This document shows, in pieces, positions 2,837-24,298 of a DNA stretch of 64,000 bases. Below the pieces are notes generated by a model. The model was not told the DNA's origin. It saw nothing but the letters and a program-made list of their open reading frames with translations, and made no database searches. Positions within the stretch are counted from its first letter, which is position 1. Every line of letters starts with the position of its first letter. The position numbers and the translations under genes were made by a program. Source of the stretch: a virus (taxonomy: Duplodnaviria; Caudoviricetes); the IMG/VR virus record IMGVR_UViG_3300037400_002947, positions 54,999 to 118,998 of that record, one strand, 5' to 3'.

Positions 2837-4420
2837 TTATTTTACGATTCCATCAAATAAAGAACCGTACCGTTTAGTTTTCTTTGCATTCGGCGCAAGC
2901 GGTTTAACACTAGCACCTTTCTTGCCTTGTTCCGACAGAGAGAACTTATGCGCCTTTGCGGCGTTTGTAAGAATCTCGTCCGCTCGTTTCGTCACTTCTT
3001 CAACAGAAAGATTAAAATGATTCTTTTGCTCCATAAGACTTTGGAATTCTTCACTGTCAGCAACTAAAGAATAGTCGTCAGAATTCAGAATTTCCATCTT
3101 TTGCGGCTCTGCCTCATATTTTGCAAGCTTGTCCGCATTGTCATCATATGTTGACTTCATTCTATCAAGCTTGGCAATTTCATCAGAAGTAAGCCATCGA
3201 GCAAAAACTTCAACACGGTCTCCAGTGAGTGTGTACGCATCGTTCTTAACCTTGAAAGACTGTTTGTAACCTTTGTTGTTGTACCAGTCAATCATGATTA
3301 CGTATCTGTCCTCATCATACACGGTAACTTCGTACCAAGTCCCATCATCTGCATATGTATCGTTGACCAGTTGATAAAGGGCGTTAATCTTGTCCTGAAG
3401 GGACACGCTCATATTTACCGTTCTATCGTTGAATGTAACAGAATAATTTACGGCAAACTGTTCACCTTCGTCTTCGGAATCTTCTTCGTCATCGTCGTTA
3501 GAGTCAAAATCTTCTTCGTCTTCCGGTTTCGCTTGACCTTCTTCATCCGGATCGTCGCCTTCGTCCGGATCACCTTCGGAAGACCCGAACACCTCTTCGA
3601 ACTTCGCCTCCAGCTCTTCGTCGGAAAGTCCTTCGTAATCGAAGTCAACTTCCTCGGCCGTCTTGCCATACTTTTCAAGAAGTTCTGCAAACTTGTCCAT
3701 TGCGGTATTTCCTCCTTCCTTAGATTTTTGGTCGCCCATAAGAGCAGTATAGTTATTGAGCGCCTCTGTCAGTTCGCTCATTACTATCATTAACTGAGAC
3801 TGAATATTGTCACCCTCTGTAGAAAACATTTGAGCATTCGCGCCTTGCATACCTGGGCGTATATCGTCACCAAGCAAGGTTACTCCAGACATACGCATCT
3901 TCCCGACTTCTATCACCTGAGTTTGTGCATTGACAGACAATTCGTCACAATAAATCTCAGCTGACACGTCTGTAATTCCGCCCTTTGCCTCAAGGATGTC
4001 AGCCGCGTAGCCGCCGTATTCACGATAGAGATAACCGTCGACGTATACATAGTCGACGCCTCTTTCGTCGTCACGTACGATTTCAAAATTGTTTGTCTCA
4101 GGAATAATTCCGACGACGCGTTCTTCATAAATCATCTTCTGTTCACCGGGATGCATCAGGTCTTCCTCAAGATGCATGTCGTGCGAGTGATAGTCTAAAA
4201 TTATATTTCCGTCTTCGTCTTCATAGGAAACAACGGTCGCCAAAATCGGAATGTTTGCAAATGTGTTCTTTGCGTCACGAATGACTTTGGTTGAGAATGA
4301 TGACTTGTTGCGGTTTTCTCCAGAATGCATAACTGCAATTCTGACTTTCATATAACGCTCATCGTCAAAAGCATTATCAACCTTGAACAGAGAGGGAGTA
4401 TGGATTATGAGTTTTTCCAT
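2837..4420 (-). CDS. Prohead protease/scaffold protein
   Basis: 527 aa; N-terminal HSGENRNKS, VSAEI and SGVTLLG motifs typical of phage head proteases; acidic linker and helical C-terminal scaffold. Confidence 0.7.
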   Translation of the reverse strand: MEKLIIHTPSLFKVDNAFDDERYMKVRIAVMHSGENRNKSSFSTKVIRDAKNTFANIPILATVVSYEDEDGNIILDYHSHDMHLEEDLMHPGEQKMIYEERVVGIIPETNNFEIVRDDERGVDYVYVDGYLYREYGGYAADILEAKGGITDVSAEIYCDELSVNAQTQVIEVGKMRMSGVTLLGDDIRPGMQGANAQMFSTEGDNIQSQLMIVMSELTEALNNYTALMGDQKSKEGGNTAMDKFAELLEKYGKTAEEVDFDYEGLSDEELEAKFEEVFGSSEGDPDEGDDPDEEGQAKPEDEEDFDSNDDDEEDSEDEGEQFAVNYSVTFNDRTVNMSVSLQDKINALYQLVNDTYADDGTWYEVTVYDEDRYVIMIDWYNNKGYKQSFKVKNDAYTLTGDRVEVFARWLTSDEIAKLDRMKSTYDDNADKLAKYEAEPQKMEILNSDDYSLVADSEEFQSLMEQKNHFNLSVEEVTKRADEILTNAAKAHKFSLSEQGKKGASVKPLAPNAKKTKRYGSLFDGIVK

Positions 4421-9519: not shown

Positions 9520-9596
9520 TGCCCGCGGCAGGATTTGAACCTGTGAACCCCCGCTTTAGAAGGCGGTGCTCTAGACCGAACTGAGCTACGTCGGGC
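9520..9596 (-). tRNA. Atypical tRNA (Arg-TCT-like; 8-nt anticodon loop CTTCTAAA), possibly pseudo
   Basis: TAGCTCAGTTCGGTCTAGAGC D-arm, CAGG-TTCAAAT-CCTG T-arm, acceptor GCCCGACG/CGCGGGC with one bulge; no encoded CCA. Confidence 0.75.
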
Positions 9597-10871: not shown

Positions 10872-11502
10872 AATGCAGCATTTTATAACAGCCATAAATA
10901 GGATTTCTCCTTACAAGCAAATAACGTCGTAATATTCAGTCATGGTGTCAACAAGTCCGAGCCACGCCAGCGTCCCAGCGAGACTTCTTGCCGAACAAAC
11001 CAATCAACCGATGCAAAACACCAGTCAAACGATTCGCAAATCACCAAAGAGATTGATACTCTCAACTTTCACCCGTCATTCGGAAAGAAGTCATCCCAAT
11101 GACAAATGTGCTACACGTCATAATTTCCGTTGGTTGAGCTACTCGTCCGGCAAACAGTTCTTATAGTCGCATTTCTGCAACGTCACAACGGTAGTAGCGG
11201 CTTATTTGGATTTCCCTTACTTACCACTCCAACAGTTTTCCACACCGTTGGCATCAGGGTTGTTCTCACACAGTGAGCGTCTATTGTGCCGCCGAACTGA
11301 ATCCGACTTTTTACGGTCATATTTGTTTGTGCCAGAGCTTGGCTTTTGCGGTTTCCGCATTTCCTATACAGGCATCACTGCCACTCGGAGATCACCAACT
11401 CAAAGTATCCCATGAATCAACGACCCGTCATACGCTCTGCCTCGGCACGGTGACTAACCGATCTTCACCGAGGTATTAATGGATGTTATAAAATGCTGCA
11501 TT
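10872..11502 (-). ncRNA. Large structured ncRNA (~630 nt), ROOL-like
   Basis: Intergenic; perfect 19-bp inverted repeat at 10872-10890 and 11484-11502; GNRA-capped hairpins on the minus strand (GGCA-GTGA-TGCC, GTTGCA-GAAA-TGCGAC, AGGA-GAAA-TCCT); size and phage/tRNA context fit ROOL. Confidence 0.75.
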
Positions 11503-18567: not shown

Positions 18568-19054
18568 CGGTACTTCCTATACCCCCCTTGCGCTTGCCAG
18601 TCGAAGAGTCGTCCTCGACGGTCTCGTACTTCACAATGATGCCCTGGGCAATTCGATTACCAGAATCGAGATACTTCCACTCGTCGTCTCTGTTGTAGAC
18701 ACAAAGAATAATGTGTCCCTCGTTGTCAGAGTTATCATAGTAATCAGCATCGATGACTCCGATGGTGTTGGCCAGAGATAACCCGCGCTTGATTCCGATG
18801 CTTGAACGAATATCAAGAAGTAGAACGCAGTCGTTGTCGAGTCTGCACTTTACTCCGGTATAAATTTTCTTTGTGCCGCGCGGCGGAATTGACACGTCAT
18901 ATGGTAAATAAAAGTCATATCCGGCAGAGTGTGCCGTTAACCGTTTCGGCAGGATGATGCCGCTCCAGCAGTGACCGACCCAGTCTTCGTCGTTTTCGGA
19001 CGGCGCAAGGTCGGCAAGAAATTGGCTTTTTGTTACTCTTTCAAATTTATTCAT
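18560..19054 (-). CDS. dut: Trimeric dUTPase
   Basis: SAGYDF, RSS, GVIDADY, RIAQG, RKGGIGST. Confidence 0.92.
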   Translation of the reverse strand: MNKFERVTKSQFLADLAPSENDEDWVGHCWSGIILPKRLTAHSAGYDFYLPYDVSIPPRGTKKIYTGVKCRLDNDCVLLLDIRSSIGIKRGLSLANTIGVIDADYYDNSDNEGHIILCVYNRDDEWKYLDSGNRIAQGIIVKYETVEDDSSTGKRKGGIGSTDE

Positions 19055-21476
19055 TGATATCCTCCACTGTTATATTGACATCTATTCGACGCGCCAAATC
19101 ATAGACTACGTCTACGGTTACTCCATTTCCGGCTTGTTTGTAGAGCTGCGAATCGCTGTTGACCAACTCAGCCTTTACAAAATAGTCATCGCTCCAACCC
19201 TGAAGTCTGAAACACTCTTTGGGAGTTAGTTTACGAATGGCAATGTAGCAATCATACTTTGGATACCAAATTGCACTTACAGTCTCACCATTCGGAAGCT
19301 CGACATCGATTATGTTGTGCTCTCCATCCCCATCAATACCGATTGCAACACCATGCCTGTCTATGCTTGTAAGCGTAAAAGAGCACTCGCCATCCTCTTT
19401 GAATCTGCGACCATTTTGGCGCTTAACGCTTCGCTCTGGAGTCAGAACAGGAATTACGACACGGTTCATAGTCTGGTGCGTCCTCATTCCTTCTTTGGCA
19501 GGTCCACTTGAAGAAAGACATTGGGCAACGTCCGACTCATCTCCAATTATTCCGTTTGCGAATTTTACGAGGACTGCACTCGCACCGCGATCGCCGTCCA
19601 TAGTGAAATTAGTCAGACTGTTTTTCTGGTACTGGTATTTGAGAGTACGACACGTTCCGTCGGGCATTGTATTAAACCCGACAGGAAGAGCGGTGTAGTG
19701 TTCTCGTCCGCCGCCTTGACATGTCGAGAGAGCCTCTGTAATTCCGTCCTGGGCAAATATCTGCGTATTCCTACGGTACGCTTTATGGTGACCAAGTATT
19801 TTTACTGGAACACTATTCGCTTCATTTGCTGAGCAGAGAGGAAATACTTCGCGTCCGCCTCTCGATCTAAGATGTCCGACAAGATATACGCGTTCCCTGT
19901 TTTGGGGGACGAAATATTTCGAGTTGTACATCTGCCATTCGCAGTCGTACCCTAGGTCATCCATTTCAGACAGAATGGCAAGGAAGTCAAATCCGTTATT
20001 GCTGCTAAGCATGCCTTTAACGTTTTCATACACAAGCCATTCGGGGCGATCGTCTTCGCCGATTTCTTTAAGGATGCGAAAGACTTCTCGGACAAGAGAG
20101 CTTCGATTTCCTTCGAGACCTGCTCGCTTTCCGGCGACGCTAAAATCCTGGCAATTGTGCGCTGCAAGTCCGTTTGCCGTGTAGCTGTGGTCATCCTCAA
20201 CCTCCATGTTGTAAACAATTTCTTTCTCTTTTGGGTGGTAATCAATTTGTTTTAATGGCATCCAAAGATTTCCATCAACAATATATCCATTATTCTGCTT
20301 TTTAATTTCCTTATGGAATTGCAAACAGTACTGATCTTTCTGATTTACCAGTCGCCCTTCAATAATATGCTGATCTTTTGTTTTATAATGATGAATGGAA
20401 AACGGAGTGGCGTATGCCTTAAGCACGCATTGTCCCATTTGATAAATTAAGCCTTCGCTAACGCTCTGAGCCTTGAAGTATCCGTCCTTTTCGCATCCAT
20501 CGCCACTCATGTATCCATCAATAAACACGGTTAGTTTTTCCGGAGGCAAATCCATAACGAACTGAGGAATGCGTTTATTTTCTGCGCCCCTTCCACATTC
20601 CGAGCAAAGACCAAAGAGCCGTTTATCCGTTGTGGTATATTTCAAACATGTTCCCGCACTGCTGTCGACGGCAAAGCTGTACGTCTCAATGTGCTTATTG
20701 AATTCTGTACTCTTGTCAGAACCAATACAAAATGCGGTTCTTCGTGCAAGCGTATTCCTGTCTTTGCGCTCATATTCCTGGAGATAACCATCGGCAACAA
20801 ATCTTCCAAGAAACCAACACTCTTCGTCGGTAAGATTCATTGCATTACAAGAATTCTCGTTATGCGGGAACATGATATATTCGTCTCCAGAGAAATCTTC
20901 GACTGCCTTCCATTCTGGGGATGTCCATATAACGTCGTAATTTCTTGTAGCACTATTAAACTTCCTTTTCTTATAGCGCACGTAAAACCTATGGTTTCCG
21001 GTTACTTTTGTGCTCGGAGAACCTTGAACCTTAATCGTGTACAGGTTGCCTTTGTAGTTGATCATCTTCTCGGTGACCCGCTTAAACCTATTTGTATGAG
21101 TAAGAACAAAATCACCAACACAAATATCTTCAATGGGTACAAGACCGCGGTGTGTAGAAACTAAAGTGCCAGCAACAAAGCAAGGCGCTCCGAAGCACCA
21201 GCAGTCCGCTTTCGGGATAGTGTCTCCGGTAATGCTCCGGACGTCGTCGCAGTACCATTCTCCGTTTCGGTATTTCTCATTCAGTATCTCCTTGACTCTT
21301 TTATTTTTAGGAAGCGACGCAATATATGAGAGCTGATCATCAGAACATAGGTGCATCGCCGTATATGACGCCGTCGCATATTTGTCAAACTCGCAGAAGC
21401 CGACGCACTCGTGTCCGGCCATCTCCATGCCGCGCCTAAAGCCGCCAATTCCGGCAAATAGGTCTATAAATTTCAT
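19047..21476 (-). CDS. dcm: DNA (cytosine-5) methyltransferase, intein-containing, probably multispecific
   Basis: DLFAGIGG, GAP|CQDFS split by the intein, ENVKG, QNRERVY, RKLTPKEC, QAGNGV. Confidence 0.93.
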   Translation of the reverse strand: MKFIDLFAGIGGFRRGMEMAGHECVGFCEFDKYATASYTAMHLCSDDQLSYIASLPKNKRVKEILNEKYRNGEWYCDDVRSITGDTIPKADCWCFGAPCFVAGTLVSTHRGLVPIEDICVGDFVLTHTNRFKRVTEKMINYKGNLYTIKVQGSPSTKVTGNHRFYVRYKKRKFNSATRNYDVIWTSPEWKAVEDFSGDEYIMFPHNENSCNAMNLTDEECWFLGRFVADGYLQEYERKDRNTLARRTAFCIGSDKSTEFNKHIETYSFAVDSSAGTCLKYTTTDKRLFGLCSECGRGAENKRIPQFVMDLPPEKLTVFIDGYMSGDGCEKDGYFKAQSVSEGLIYQMGQCVLKAYATPFSIHHYKTKDQHIIEGRLVNQKDQYCLQFHKEIKKQNNGYIVDGNLWMPLKQIDYHPKEKEIVYNMEVEDDHSYTANGLAAHNCQDFSVAGKRAGLEGNRSSLVREVFRILKEIGEDDRPEWLVYENVKGMLSSNNGFDFLAILSEMDDLGYDCEWQMYNSKYFVPQNRERVYLVGHLRSRGGREVFPLCSANEANSVPVKILGHHKAYRRNTQIFAQDGITEALSTCQGGGREHYTALPVGFNTMPDGTCRTLKYQYQKNSLTNFTMDGDRGASAVLVKFANGIIGDESDVAQCLSSSGPAKEGMRTHQTMNRVVIPVLTPERSVKRQNGRRFKEDGECSFTLTSIDRHGVAIGIDGDGEHNIIDVELPNGETVSAIWYPKYDCYIAIRKLTPKECFRLQGWSDDYFVKAELVNSDSQLYKQAGNGVTVDVVYDLARRIDVNITVEDINE
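20154..21182 (-). mobile_element. Intein (343 aa) with LAGLIDADG homing endonuclease
   Basis: Starts CFVAGTLV, ends YTANGLAAHN followed by Cys; LAGLIDADG-like FLGRFVADG and FIDGYMSGDG. Confidence 0.92.
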
Positions 21477-22188: not shown

Positions 22189-22445
22189 CGCTTAACTCCT
22201 TTCATCCGCTCGCGAAGCTTCTCGCGCTGCTCGTCCGAAATCTTCCGCGGCGCTGAAATCTTTATATATGAGAGAGGGATGGTTGCAAAGACCGAGCCGT
22301 CCTCGTTATTAGTTAAGGTAACTTCTGCCGGATTTGCTTTGGCTAGCCTTCGCAGCCTGTTGATCCATTTCGTCTGCGAGACGGTTGCTGCGGCGCTGTC
22401 AGATCCGGTAATCCACTCAATTGCGTTTTCCTGACTTCGCTCCAT
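22185..22445 (-). CDS. Hypothetical protein, first gene of the leftward operon
   Basis: 86 aa, AAAGGAG RBS downstream of the promoter. Confidence 0.75.
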   Translation of the reverse strand: MERSQENAIEWITGSDSAAATVSQTKWINRLRRLAKANPAEVTLTNNEDGSVFATIPLSYIKISAPRKISDEQREKLRERMKGVKR

Positions 22446-22527: not shown

Positions 22528-22875
22528 ATCTACTATTATATTATATAAATAATATATAGTAGTAATATTATATATAATAATATATTGAAGCCAGATAATT
22601 ATTAATAGAAGCCTATTAATATATTGAAGCTATATATTATATATAATAAATAGAAGCCAAATAGAAATTATATATGGAAGCCATATTGTAATATGTATTA
22701 ATACAATATTGCAGTATGGCTTTAATACTATTTTTATATATTGTATTAATACTATTATTCAGTATTGTTTTAATACAATACCGTTATATGTATTTATATC
22801 TATTAGAAAAGTATTTTATATTCAACATATTGTAGTTATATCTATATTGCTTACTACCATATAAAATACTTTTCG
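22528..22875. repeat. Extremely AT-rich tract with GAAGC(C) repeats and palindromes; candidate replication origin
   Basis: GAAGC at 22587, 22608, 22626, 22653, 22677; repeated palindromes TATTATATATAATA and GTATTAATAC; lies at the divergence point of the two arms. Confidence 0.55.
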
Positions 22876-23194
22876 TTTTGCCGATCTGATTTATCCCTCT
22901 GGCATTCAAATTTAATGATCAACTGTACTGAGTGTGATAGTACAGTATGACACGCGAAAATCAGGAATGATTACTGAGTTGTAATAATTATTGCAGTGTC
23001 GATGTGCCGGGGGAAGGAAGAATTTGAAGTCAGTGTGGGTGTGGAACACCCGTATGGTGGGGCAGAAAAAATGCCGACTTTTTAGGTTTAAAATACCCCC
23101 AAACTTTAGCACTTTAAAGTGCGCTTAAAGCCGCATAGATACTGGCAAAAATGAACATTTTTGACATTATTTCCAGCATATGTTTTTATATAAT

Positions 23195-23510
23195 TGTCCA
23201 AAGGGACAGGCGAACAGGAAACGGTCAGACCGCCCTGCTCGGAATATATCGAAGCGGAAACAGTCCGACTGCCCGTTTCACCTCTACCCGTCAACCAGTC
23301 ACCGTAGCACGCTACGAGTATGTCCTTTGACAGTCGAATAAAAGGTGGCACACGACCGGAAAAGTGCGCTCATTTTGCGGGATTTTTACGCAATGAGTCT
23401 GTGTAAACCTATGGCGGAAGTTCAGGAGAGTTCAGGGTAACCATAGTCTGTGAAGGGTGAAGTATGCGATGACCGCAGAATAATGACGGTGCAATTCCGT
23501 CCACGAGCCG
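23195..23510 (+). ncRNA. Structured non-coding leader upstream of the ribozyme
   Basis: Helices TGTCCAAAGGGACA/TGTCCTTTGACA, GAAACGG/CCGTTTC, CGTAGC/GCTACG, CTCATT/AATGAG, CTATGG/CCATAG and a T-loop hairpin GACGG-TGCAATT-CCGTC. Confidence 0.55.
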
Positions 23511-23514
23511 ATAG

Positions 23515-23569
23515 ATGCTAATGCTACCATTATGACGGTGACAAGTCCGTGTAAAAGCAGAGTCAGCAC
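23515..23569 (+). ncRNA. Twister self-cleaving ribozyme (P1 type)
   Basis: TGC-TAA-TGCT-ACC-attatg-ACGG-T-GAC-AAGT-CCGT-gtaaa-AGCA-GA-GTC-A-GCA: P1, P2, P4 and both pseudoknots (GAC/GTC, AC/GT) can pair. Confidence 0.85.
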
Positions 23570-23611
23570 AAAAATCATGTATCGCCCAAAATGGGCAGAA
23601 AGGGGGACATT

Positions 23612-24232
23612 ATGTCCAAAAACGCTAACATGAAATCCGCAGACCGTACCATGAACGAGAGAGTCAGCGAGTACGCTACCGTACGACTCAGCGACATCAC
23701 GGACAAAACGCGCCACAAGGCCGCCGTCGAAGCAATCGAGAACTCTATCAGAGGTCTCGAAAACTGCAAGGGTTCTGTGCTGTCGTCTGACGACATCGAC
23801 CTTGCCATTGCTGCGAAACGTGACGAACTTGTCAAACTTGAAGAGGACTACAAGGAAGCGCTCAAAAAGCGTGAGCGCTTTGTCTACACCAAGGAAGACA
23901 TCGAACTGTACAATGCGTACAAGAACAATGAGAATCTGGAGACCGCCCTGTATAATTGGGCAATGGCATGGAATCTCGATTTGTCTGGCACGAAACAGTT
24001 GAGCCAAATGGCAGTAGATGTCTCTGGCAAACAGGGCAAGGCGTCTGCCCGTACCATGATTAACACCGGATTCGGCACAATGACCAGAGACCGCAGTAAG
24101 CAGAACTTCTTAGACCTCGTATACGGTCTCATGACCGAGGCGTGCGTCAAGCAGGGTCTCAAAATGGACATTCCGGACGACATTCGTGTAGCTTATGCGC
24201 CGAAAAGGGCACAGAAAAAGGCTGACAAATAA
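23612..24232 (+). CDS. Hypothetical early protein, first rightward gene
   Basis: ATG 23612 after AAAGGGGG; followed by two hairpins. Confidence 0.75.
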   Translation: MSKNANMKSADRTMNERVSEYATVRLSDITDKTRHKAAVEAIENSIRGLENCKGSVLSSDDIDLAIAAKRDELVKLEEDYKEALKKRERFVYTKEDIELYNAYKNNENLETALYNWAMAWNLDLSGTKQLSQMAVDVSGKQGKASARTMINTGFGTMTRDRSKQNFLDLVYGLMTEACVKQGLKMDIPDDIRVAYAPKRAQKKADK

Positions 24233-24298
24233 TATCAGCCTTTCCGCATAGCATAGCGCATAGATTGGGGCGACAAGTGGCAGCTTGTCGCTCTTATT
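24217..24298 (+). terminator. Tandem hairpins/terminator after the first early gene
   Basis: AAAGGCTGA/TCAGCCTTT and GGGCGACAAG/CTTGTCGCTC-TTATT. Confidence 0.65.

Follow-up and report, generated by a model that had tools for sequence, protein, structure and literature searches.

In a 64,000-nucleotide stretch of viral DNA (hereafter the window), which forms part of the 118,998-bp IMG/VR virus record IMGVR_UViG_3300037400_002947, positions 23195-23519 probably represent a non-coding leader RNA of about 325 bases that belongs to the rightward operon, is cut off by a twister ribozyme and has a conserved module as its 3' end. The rightward operon is probably an early one. Such a leader would be transcribed from a promoter at about 23161-23194 and would fold as a chain: a hairpin at the 5' end comes first, then a pair of bulged hairpins and a variable middle, and last a conserved 3' module of 115 nt, made up of a hairpin (P-a) and a three-way junction. 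A variant type-P1 twister would cut between U23519 and A23520, 14 nt past the junction, so that the leader would be released with a 2',3'-cyclic phosphate end and the messenger RNA (mRNA) would carry a 5'-OH and begin with the folded ribozyme, followed by a conserved hairpin and the ribosome-binding site. In homologous phages the site of the cutter is taken either by a twister-P1 or by a minihelix resembling part of a transfer RNA (tRNA), an expected target of the host enzymes RNase P and RNase Z. The module itself may be a diverged tRNA-like element, serving as the structured 3' end of the released and probably stable leader.

The evidence comes from a comparison of the window with its relatives, by which we mean homologues of the first gene of the operon together with the DNA upstream of them (designated by L-numbers). 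Searching the leader against Rfam gave no match for the module or the leader RNA even at E<=10, the sole match in the region being the twister. The structured RNA that the first-pass annotation of this DNA had placed just upstream of the twister is thus indeed uncatalogued, as well as conserved and, in part, structured.

A module kept by compensatory base changes

The last ~115 nt before the ribozyme contain four helices, one in the hairpin P-a and three in the three-way junction, followed by a single-stranded tail:

23409..23446, plus strand: hairpin P-a, a 6-bp stem (23409-14/23441-46) with a 26-nt loop
23449..23505, plus strand: three-way junction (the 'tRNA-like module'), composed of P-b, AAGGGU, H1 and a T-loop-like hairpin
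U23449-G23452/C23502-G23505, plus strand: closing stem P-b, with three of four pairs changed on both sides
23453-58, plus strand: conserved junction strand AAGGGU, from the alignment
U23465-G23468/C23474-A23477, plus strand: short arm H1 (UGCG/CGCA), with four of four pairs changed on both sides
G23485-G23489/C23497-C23501, plus strand: T-loop-like hairpin of 5 bp with loop UGCAAUU, one of five pairs changed on both sides and three invariant
23506..23515, plus strand: single-stranded tail AGCCGAUAGA between module and ribozyme, its GCCGAUA near-invariant in 7 relatives

Base pairing was counted in seven sequences for the 19 pairs of the four helices, which gives 123 pair cells. Pairing is kept in 99.2% of these cells and 12 of the 19 pairs have changed on both sides; none of 500 shuffles reached these values, and sliding the partners by 1-3 columns leaves only 33-48% paired. 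Both the conservation and the covariation are direct observations on the aligned leaders. In P-a all cells (100%) are paired and four of the six pairs differ on both sides, as illustrated by U23410C and A23445G, which compensate for each other between the window and L005. The closing stem P-b reads UGUG/CACG, CGCU/AGCG or CUC/GAG, and the 3' strand of the T-loop-like hairpin continues directly into it. The module can be assigned to the plus strand because of its G-U pairs (e.g. U23449-G23505 in four sequences). A covariance model (R2), built from five sequences with L008 and L010 held out, recovered both of the latter, with 46 bits (E=1.7e-9) and 37 bits (E=4e-7), respectively. As far as sequence comparison goes, the module is an uncatalogued RNA motif with a covariation that is unusually clean for so few sequences.

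In the first-pass annotation, this region had been drawn with a short arm, a T arm and a 7-bp acceptor stem. Both arms are retained by compensatory change in the relatives. The acceptor stem is retained in part: its inner four pairs (23449-52/23502-05) covary, whereas the outer three (23446-48/23506-08) comprise a C-A mismatch and otherwise invariant letters, on which covariation has no bearing; moreover, G23446 is the natural partner of C23409 in P-a. An alternative from minimum free energy (MFE) folding, in which the 5' strand of P-a pairs with the tail, was rejected since the compensatory change seen in L005 and L002 disrupts it. Duplex searches across the relatives established no pairing partner for the tail (23506-23515). 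The letters CCGAUAA also precede the twister of the distant L134.

tRNA-like topology of the module

The module reads as tRNA-like in topology, not in identity. After the closing stem comes a connector of ~30-32 nt bearing one arm, and then a T-type hairpin stacked on the closing stem. The 7-nt loop of this hairpin is closed by a G:C pair and has U at position 1, a purine at position 4 and A at position 5, both as UGCAAUU (window, L002, L005 and L009) and in the likewise G:C-closed variants UGCAAAU (L008) and UUGGAUU (L132). These letters match the T-loop motif of tRNA T arms, its three-dimensional fold being a prediction; in L010, an insertion of ~60 nt lies within the 'T loop'. H1 is the only arm between the closing stem and the T-like hairpin, and there is no D arm. 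Since the H1 loops are 5 nt long and unconserved (AUGAC, UAGCA, GGAGA), the module has no anticodon loop. Four pairs of the acceptor are supported by covariation, and its 3' tail, AGCCGAUAGAUGCU, carries no CCA. Over 22600-23900, no match to tRNA (RF00005) was obtained in an Rfam scan at E<=10 and no tRNA was called by ARAGORN at default settings. With the threshold lowered to 80%, ARAGORN called a 'tRNA-Ser' at 23420-23509, one of 20 calls in the 64 kb, with an acceptor that conflicts with the covarying P-a. A T-box reading of GGGUG...ACCGC was discarded owing to its wrong spacing and the lack of an Rfam match.

These observations bear on the idea that the module is a working tRNA mimic, either a decoy against a tRNA-targeting defence or a recruiter of tRNA enzymes, the 3' end of which is trimmed by the twister. 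A mimic would explain the coaxial topology resembling acceptor and T arm, with U1, purine 4 and A5 in all three loop variants, and the imperfect 7-bp stem and the 5-bp stem would add up to a tRNA-like stack of 12 bp; true tRNA-like minihelices are, besides, found nearby in relatives. We nevertheless consider a working mimic improbable. It would have to do without a D arm, a CCA and any anticodon to present as a decoy (the 5-nt H1 loops being variable), it is matched by no Rfam family at E<=10 and by no default ARAGORN call, the relaxed call being at background level and breaking P-a, it would have to tolerate the loop insertion of L010, and its cut lies 11-14 nt from the stem, compared to within +/-5 nt for theta ribozymes (PMC10879173). 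What stands of the proposed tRNA-like 3' end is the acceptor/T-arm-like topology together with the real minihelices of relatives; the element itself is neither a tRNA nor a recognisable mimic of one.

A variant twister ribozyme between module and first gene

The twister and its parts were assigned as follows:

23516..23568, plus strand: variant type-P1 twister (Rfam RF03160, 38.4 bits, E=1.6e-6, below the gathering score of 67.2)
23516-19/23565-68 (P1), 23522-25/23556-59 (P2) and 23535-38/23547-50 (P4), plus strand: twister stems, from the RF03160 alignment and a hand and mechanical parse
23540-42 with 23562-64 (T1) and 23545-46 with 23526-27 (T2), plus strand: twister pseudoknots, from the parse

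RF03160 is the sole Rfam family that matches the region at a permissive threshold, and the element, which lies 43 nt before the start codon of the first gene, is the only twister in the 119-kb record. Twisters cleave at a U-A dinucleotide (PMC5408937), and from this and the RF03160 alignment the cut is predicted at U23519|A23520, so that the module ends 14 nt before it (11 nt with the limits of the first-pass annotation). At the same position upstream of the gene, RF03160 matches the window, L005, L002, L010, L132, L133, L134 and L138, and the twister of L008 was found by hand parsing.

The mechanical parse covered the seven leaders then in hand, with L138 left out. In all seven, P2 and P4 are paired at four of four positions with covariation, P2 occurring as UGCU/AGCA, UGAC/GUCA and CCAC/GUGG and P4 as ACGG/CCGU, AUCG/CGAU and ACUG/CAGU, while P1 has 4-5 bp in most relatives. 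Compensatory change has also kept both pseudoknots: T1 is found as GAC/GUC, GGC/GCC or CAC/GUG (UAC/GUA in L138, read by eye), and T2 as GU/AC or GC/GC, always paired. The low Rfam score can be attributed to pseudoknot letters that are altered yet paired, and to the missing P3. With this architecture, which is observed directly, the element fits the structural definition of a twister (P1, P2, P4, T1, T2 and the U-A dinucleotide; PMC5408937), and catalysis is predicted. For genome annotation, this means that a twister match can be real even if it falls below the threshold and its pseudoknot letters are altered.

A 151-nt contig from another metagenome carries the twister core of the window (23534-23565) between other flanks (GCACTT|AATGCTACC...AGTGC) and represents a further locus with the same variant.

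Twister and minihelix alternate in one slot

Thirteen distinct leaders reach far enough upstream to show the slot before the first gene (the contig of L136 is too short), and in 12 of them it is filled, by a twister-P1 in eight distinct sequences and by a tRNA-like minihelix in four. The minihelix takes the place of the twister in L006/L007, L009, L139/L140 and L141. In L006/L007 and L009 it is located between the tail and the conserved hairpin that precedes the Shine-Dalgarno (SD) sequence, and it comprises a 7-bp stem, a connector of 19-21 nt, a GUGGG-UUCGAUG-CCCAC arm and the 3' strand of the stem. L139/L140 and L141 (IMG/VR) show the same design with the loops UUCAAGU and UUCGAAU. The four 7-bp stems (AACCAUG/CAUGGUU, AAGUGUG/CACACUA, UAGCAGU/ACUGCUA and AGGGUUG/CAACUCU) have unrelated letters and are all paired, and each of the four minihelices is followed by U. 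The full minihelix shape (a 7-bp acceptor stem stacked on a 5-bp T stem, ~12 bp together, with a canonical UUCRAnn T loop) is present in L006, L009, L139 and L141, not in the window.

No tRNA was called in the minihelix elements, and that of L009, the sole one scanned at E<=10, matches no Rfam family. Folding the L006/L009 element as a theta ribozyme or another relative of the hepatitis delta virus (HDV) ribozyme was tried and rejected, as there is no P3, no J4/2, no shared P1 pairing and no Rfam ribozyme match. RNase P and RNase Z recognise the acceptor/T-arm minihelix shape, and the minihelices are a probable signal for these two enzymes. Their topology of closing stem, ~30-nt connector and T-type hairpin abutting the 3' strand matches that of the module, for which reason we take the module to be a diverged relative of the minihelices.

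The alternation of twister and minihelix, a direct observation on these leaders, suggests that cutting the leader off the mRNA has been selected for. Since homologues hold either a twister-P1 or a minihelix, severing ('punctuation') would be the selected function of the slot, and the two fillings of one slot amount to a natural swap experiment that points to 'cut here' as this function. In the literature searched, no report of such an alternation at one position was found. A released leader with a role of its own is favoured because the module has been kept by compensatory change although, lying upstream of a fast cutter, it could no longer influence the mRNA once cleavage has taken place. We also put forward, tentatively, that the leader may belong to a new class of stable phage non-coding RNA, excised from the early transcript, with a 3' end generated interchangeably by twister or minihelix and capped by a diverged three-way junction.

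The distribution of module and cutter also bears on another explanation, which holds the module to be an accessory or relic of the ribozyme, in the form either of a P0-like extension or of a tandem twister that has decayed, and to aid or regulate the folding of the twister. An optional P0 stem is indeed known for twisters (PMC5408937), the 3' half of the module resembles the twister P4 region (ATAATGACGGTG compared to ATTATGACGGTG, ~70% over 37 nt by eye) and the module models weakly match the twister of L134. However, L009 combines a window-type module with the tRNA-like minihelix and lacks a twister, and L133, L134 and L138 carry twisters without the module, so that module and cutter are independent units; the two stems differ in L008 (CGG/CCG versus AUCG/CGAU), and the module, 13 nt from P1, is without the core letters UAA, UAAA and GAG and does not score as a twister. 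Such an accessory or relic therefore appears very unlikely.

In three relatives a ribozyme lies on the far side of the gene: a Twister-P5 stands right after the first-gene homologue in L138 (2156-2227), L139 (2153-2223) and L141 (2149-2219), with 40.6-49.8 bits at a gathering score of 37.6, and the gene of L138 is bracketed by two twisters of different permutation types. No ribozyme was found after the first gene in the window, where a perfect 11-bp hairpin over the stop codon (24217-24243) is the sole structure at the site of Twister-P5 in relatives. As a separate observation, L135 (400-962) shows a start hairpin TTGTCC-GAA-GGGACA, a leader of ~510 nt and a hairpin UAGGG-UGCGAAG-CCCUA ~60 nt before the ATG.

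The 5' half and middle of the leader

Upstream of the module, the following elements were distinguished:

23195..23208, plus strand: 5' hairpin UGUCC-AAAG-GGACA, recurring in relatives, probably marking the start of the transcript or lying close to it
23215..23279, plus strand: two tandem bulged hairpins (23215-37 and 23251-79), from the MFE fold, with moderate support
23280..23402, plus strand: variable middle part with the blocks ACGCUAC (23309-15), CCUUUGACA (23324-32) and AAUAAAAGG (23337-45)

The pattern TTGTCC-N(2-6)-GG..AC occurs at the matching place in five relatives (L005, L002, L006, L010 and the distant L135), and the hairpin is extended by one C:G pair in L006 and L010. No changes on both sides of this hairpin were seen among the relatives, so that it may instead be a DNA palindrome acting as an operator. 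A second TTGTCC..GGGACA, at window position 3390, lies within an apparent coding sequence and was taken as chance. Each of the bulged hairpins consists of an outer stem, an AAA bulge, a 4-bp inner stem of the form C-N-N-U/A-N-N-G and a triloop; this design is found twice in L002 and twice in L006, with the inner stems CGGU/ACCG, CAGU/ACUG, CAAU/AUUG and CGGU/ACUG.

In the middle part, a long hairpin at ~23369-23397 is specific to the window and L005, and RNAalifold found no consensus structure over 23309-23408. L002 is 87-88% identical to the window on both flanks and unalignable over most of 23211-23391. The short blocks UAUCG, ACGCUAC, CCUUGACA, AAUAAAAGG and UAAAUC are conserved without an identifiable pairing partner. 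A closing helix between the UAUCG block (23247) and CCGAUA of the tail was considered and dropped, as duplex searches gave inconsistent partners across relatives. The ~140-nt 'branched domain' described earlier for 23195-23333 is instead an open chain of local hairpins with variable inserts. The first-pass annotation had made its proposal depend on structures that are conserved in relatives, which is what we find for the 3' module, while this 5' domain does not form one closed fold.

Ribosome-binding region and first gene

Downstream of the twister, two features lead into the operon:

23584..23606, plus strand: hairpin GCCCA-AAA-UGGGC (23584-96) and SD AGGGGG (23601-06), conserved in relatives
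23612..24232, plus strand: P0003, first gene of the rightward operon, encoding an all-helical protein of 206 amino acids, ATG at 23612

The hairpin before the SD is present in all relatives, downstream of twister and minihelix alike, with an invariant GCCC/GGGC stem and a variable loop. Masking of the SD by a CCUU block was rejected, the block being absent in L132 and the cutter being, moreover, transcribed before the SD. Homologues of P0003 form ~80 clusters, and searches with P0003 against Pfam and PHROG and at the fold level yielded no family and no fold match. Among the relatives that keep the module, the first-gene proteins are 51-86% identical.

Two further explanations can be weighed against this region. 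According to the first, the leader acts in cis only and during transcription, as a riboswitch-like sensor or as an antitermination RNA that modifies the polymerase, and the cut is incidental. Its place at the start of a long operon, the tandem hairpins near its 5' end and a three-way junction whose joining strands are conserved and rich in purines, a feature of many aptamers, would suit such a role. Nonetheless, neither a terminator/antiterminator nor an SD-sequestering platform lies between the module and the gene, the sole hairpin (23584-96) is without a following U run, Rfam gives no riboswitch, T-box or put-like match, and a cutter that is kept by two unrelated mechanisms separates the leader from any regulatory target, which an incidental release would hardly account for. 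A role purely in cis is, in our opinion, unlikely.

The second explanation lets the mRNA alone benefit: the cut would drop a dispensable 5' part, the early mRNA would be stabilised by its structured 5'-OH or tRNA-like end, and the module would be idle after release. Either cutter does leave a compact fold and the conserved hairpin at the new 5' end of the mRNA, the Twister-P5 after the gene in L138, L139 and L141 corresponds to classic gene-by-gene punctuation, and half of the leader is freely replaced. This would, however, leave unexplained 115 nt with four compensated helices in phages whose proteins are 51-86% identical, as well as the tail and the sequence blocks, and we doubt it for that reason, giving it a small chance only.

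Weight of the evidence

The reading that we prefer, a leader severed by the twister with the module as its 3' end, has to be set against several findings that count against it. The alignment from which covariation was scored was fitted to the structure and holds seven sequences only, three of which are near-identical. Folding energies do not single out the RNA: MFE z-scores are +0.95 and +0.65 for the module and +0.66 for 23195-23575, no better than shuffles, and with z-scores of +0.65 to +0.95 the module is unfindable by thermodynamic folding alone. The module is limited to the clade of the window and is missing from more distant leaders that bear a twister. Half of the leader is swapped freely between near relatives, which argues against one large functional fold. 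As to the cutter, the twister of the window scores below the Rfam gathering threshold and those of the relatives reach 31-51 bits, in L132 the P1 stem is weak and T1 contains an A-C mismatch, no cutter can be recognised before the gene in L135, and cleavage of the minihelices is deduced from their shape alone.

Promoter and surroundings of the leader

The putative start of the leader was read from the following element:

23161..23194, plus strand: probable promoter of the rightward operon, with TTGACA (23161-66) and TATAAT (23189-94), read from sequence

The spacing from TTGACA to TATAAT is 22 nt, and a TGt-TTTTAT (23181-89) lies at the canonical spacing of 17 nt. The promoter was missed by a consensus scanner, owing to its spacing. 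TTGACA, the TGTG box and TAnAAT are kept in L005, L002, L006 and L010, and L133 has a canonical promoter (TTGACA-17-TATATT). Transcription of the leader would, from this promoter sequence, start close to 23195, and the 5' hairpin would form the very 5' end of the transcript provided that the TG-extended TTTTAT, spaced by 17 nt, serves as the -10 element.

The leader is situated in a divergent gene-free region of 1.15 kb, the leftward genes ending at 22445. Genes downstream of it include some with RadC and PcfJ domains, and those upstream encode, among others, a Macro-domain protein and a C5 methyltransferase that bears an intein. The latter, a C5 cytosine DNA methyltransferase of 809 amino acids (19047-21476, minus strand), is split by the intein (Pfam Hint_2 and Intein_splicing; end ...AHNC), and its homologue in L002 has 397 amino acids and no intein. 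The whole stretch is present in one public run only, a bovine gut metagenome, and no RNA run was listed among the public runs that contain it.

The left third of the gene-free region (22530-22880) is AT-rich (19-30% G+C) and contains a direct-repeat array with units of the ATAGAAGCC type, 24-nt periodic TGTATTAATAC units and perfect inverted repeats of 15-16 nt. These repeats lie at the switch of the leftward and rightward arms and are possibly an origin or an operator array; many metagenome contigs of relatives end within them. Upstream of the promoter, a block at 23010-23100 is kept even in the distant L006, L010, L132 and L133. It consists of GGGGG...GTnAGTGTGGGnGTGGAnCACCC...ACCCCC, followed by a small hairpin and a T run (23060-23085), and it may give rise to a short transcript of its own or be bound by a protein.

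Further away, a full-length ROOL RNA is encoded at 10881-11496 on the minus strand (RF03087, 308.6 bits, E=4.7e-70), which fits a phage of the rumen Bacillota type. About 1.3 kb from it lies an odd tRNA (9520-9595, minus strand), which scores 31.4 bits with the Rfam tRNA model, barely over the threshold, and is called 'tRNA-???' by ARAGORN, with a two-letter anticodon (ct) at position 39 and thus an abnormal anticodon loop.

Several wider searches were without yield. A metagenome scan with GGTGCAAWTCCGTCCACG matched only an unrelated repeat in marine-host metagenomes; viral collections were scanned for the twister core, for the block upstream, for the T-like hairpin and for the T arm of the minihelix, with no match or a false one (L011); protein-guided scans of viral and genome collections, with P0003/A2 as query, returned nothing; and a DNA search of a phage collection gave no match.

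Comparison with known systems

The leader RNA is uncatalogued, and it stands within a known arrangement, the ribozyme-punctuated phage operon. Self-cleaving ribozymes, namely hammerheads, flank genes in prophages (PMC3088659), and in the haloviruses HF1/HF2 a hammerhead (HHphage) lies 13 nt before the first early gene, and the 5' end mapped there coincides with the cut (Perreault et al. 2011, PMC3088659). The window likewise has a small self-cleaving ribozyme, an intergenic twister, just upstream of the first gene of the early arm, presumed to make defined pieces, and L138 has twisters on both sides of the gene. Unlike in these operons, the ribozyme here is a twister and is preceded by a covarying module, and in relatives the slot is tRNA-like. 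Compared to the RF03160 twister, the element has the same P1, P2, P4, T1, T2, U-A dinucleotide and CAAG/UAAA/GAG core letters, but it is without P3, and its T1/T2 read GAC/GUC and GU/AC instead of the consensus CCC/GGG and GC/GC, with pairing kept.

Theta ribozymes are minimal HDV-like double pseudoknots located within +/-5 nt of the 3' end of phage tRNAs, which they have been proposed to trim (Kienbeck et al. 2024, PMC10879173), and the first-pass annotation had drawn an analogy to them. The analogy is apt in that a ribozyme of a gut/rumen phage stands 3' of an acceptor/T-arm shape and would define a 3' end without host nucleases. It does not extend to the ribozyme class, which is twister (Rfam scans of the window region and of L009 gave no HDV-family match), to the upstream element, which is no tRNA, to the spacing of 11-14 nt, or to any link with suppressor tRNAs or recoding. 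With tRNA itself (RF00005), the module shares a closing stem that is continuous with a 5-bp stem and a G:C-closed 7-nt loop with U1 and A5; it differs from it by four supported closing pairs and by having no D arm, 7-nt anticodon loop or CCA and no call by a tRNA finder at normal thresholds.

tRNA-like elements act as processing signals in the mammalian MALAT1/mascRNA pair, in the 't-elements' of plant mitochondria, in the tRNA punctuation of mitochondrial transcripts and in the RNase P maturation of the C4 RNA of P1/P7. The minihelices of L006, L009, L139 and L141 resemble such signals that borrow RNase P and RNase Z, setting a 3' end upstream and a 5' end downstream, and a long structured RNA would be released upstream here as well. 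In contrast to MALAT1, the setting is a bacterial phage, cleavage is predicted and the window itself uses a ribozyme.

The biological role of twisters is still called largely speculative (PMC5408937). If the leader is excised and stable, twisters would gain a concrete and genetically swappable job, a question open since their discovery, and a released leader that is stable would represent a novel sort of phage non-coding RNA, generated through processing and not through termination. The covarying uncatalogued module, the alternation of twister and minihelix, and the topology shared by module and minihelix are, as our comparison suggests, what is new here, and an excised stable leader would be the bacterial-virus counterpart of MALAT1/mascRNA.

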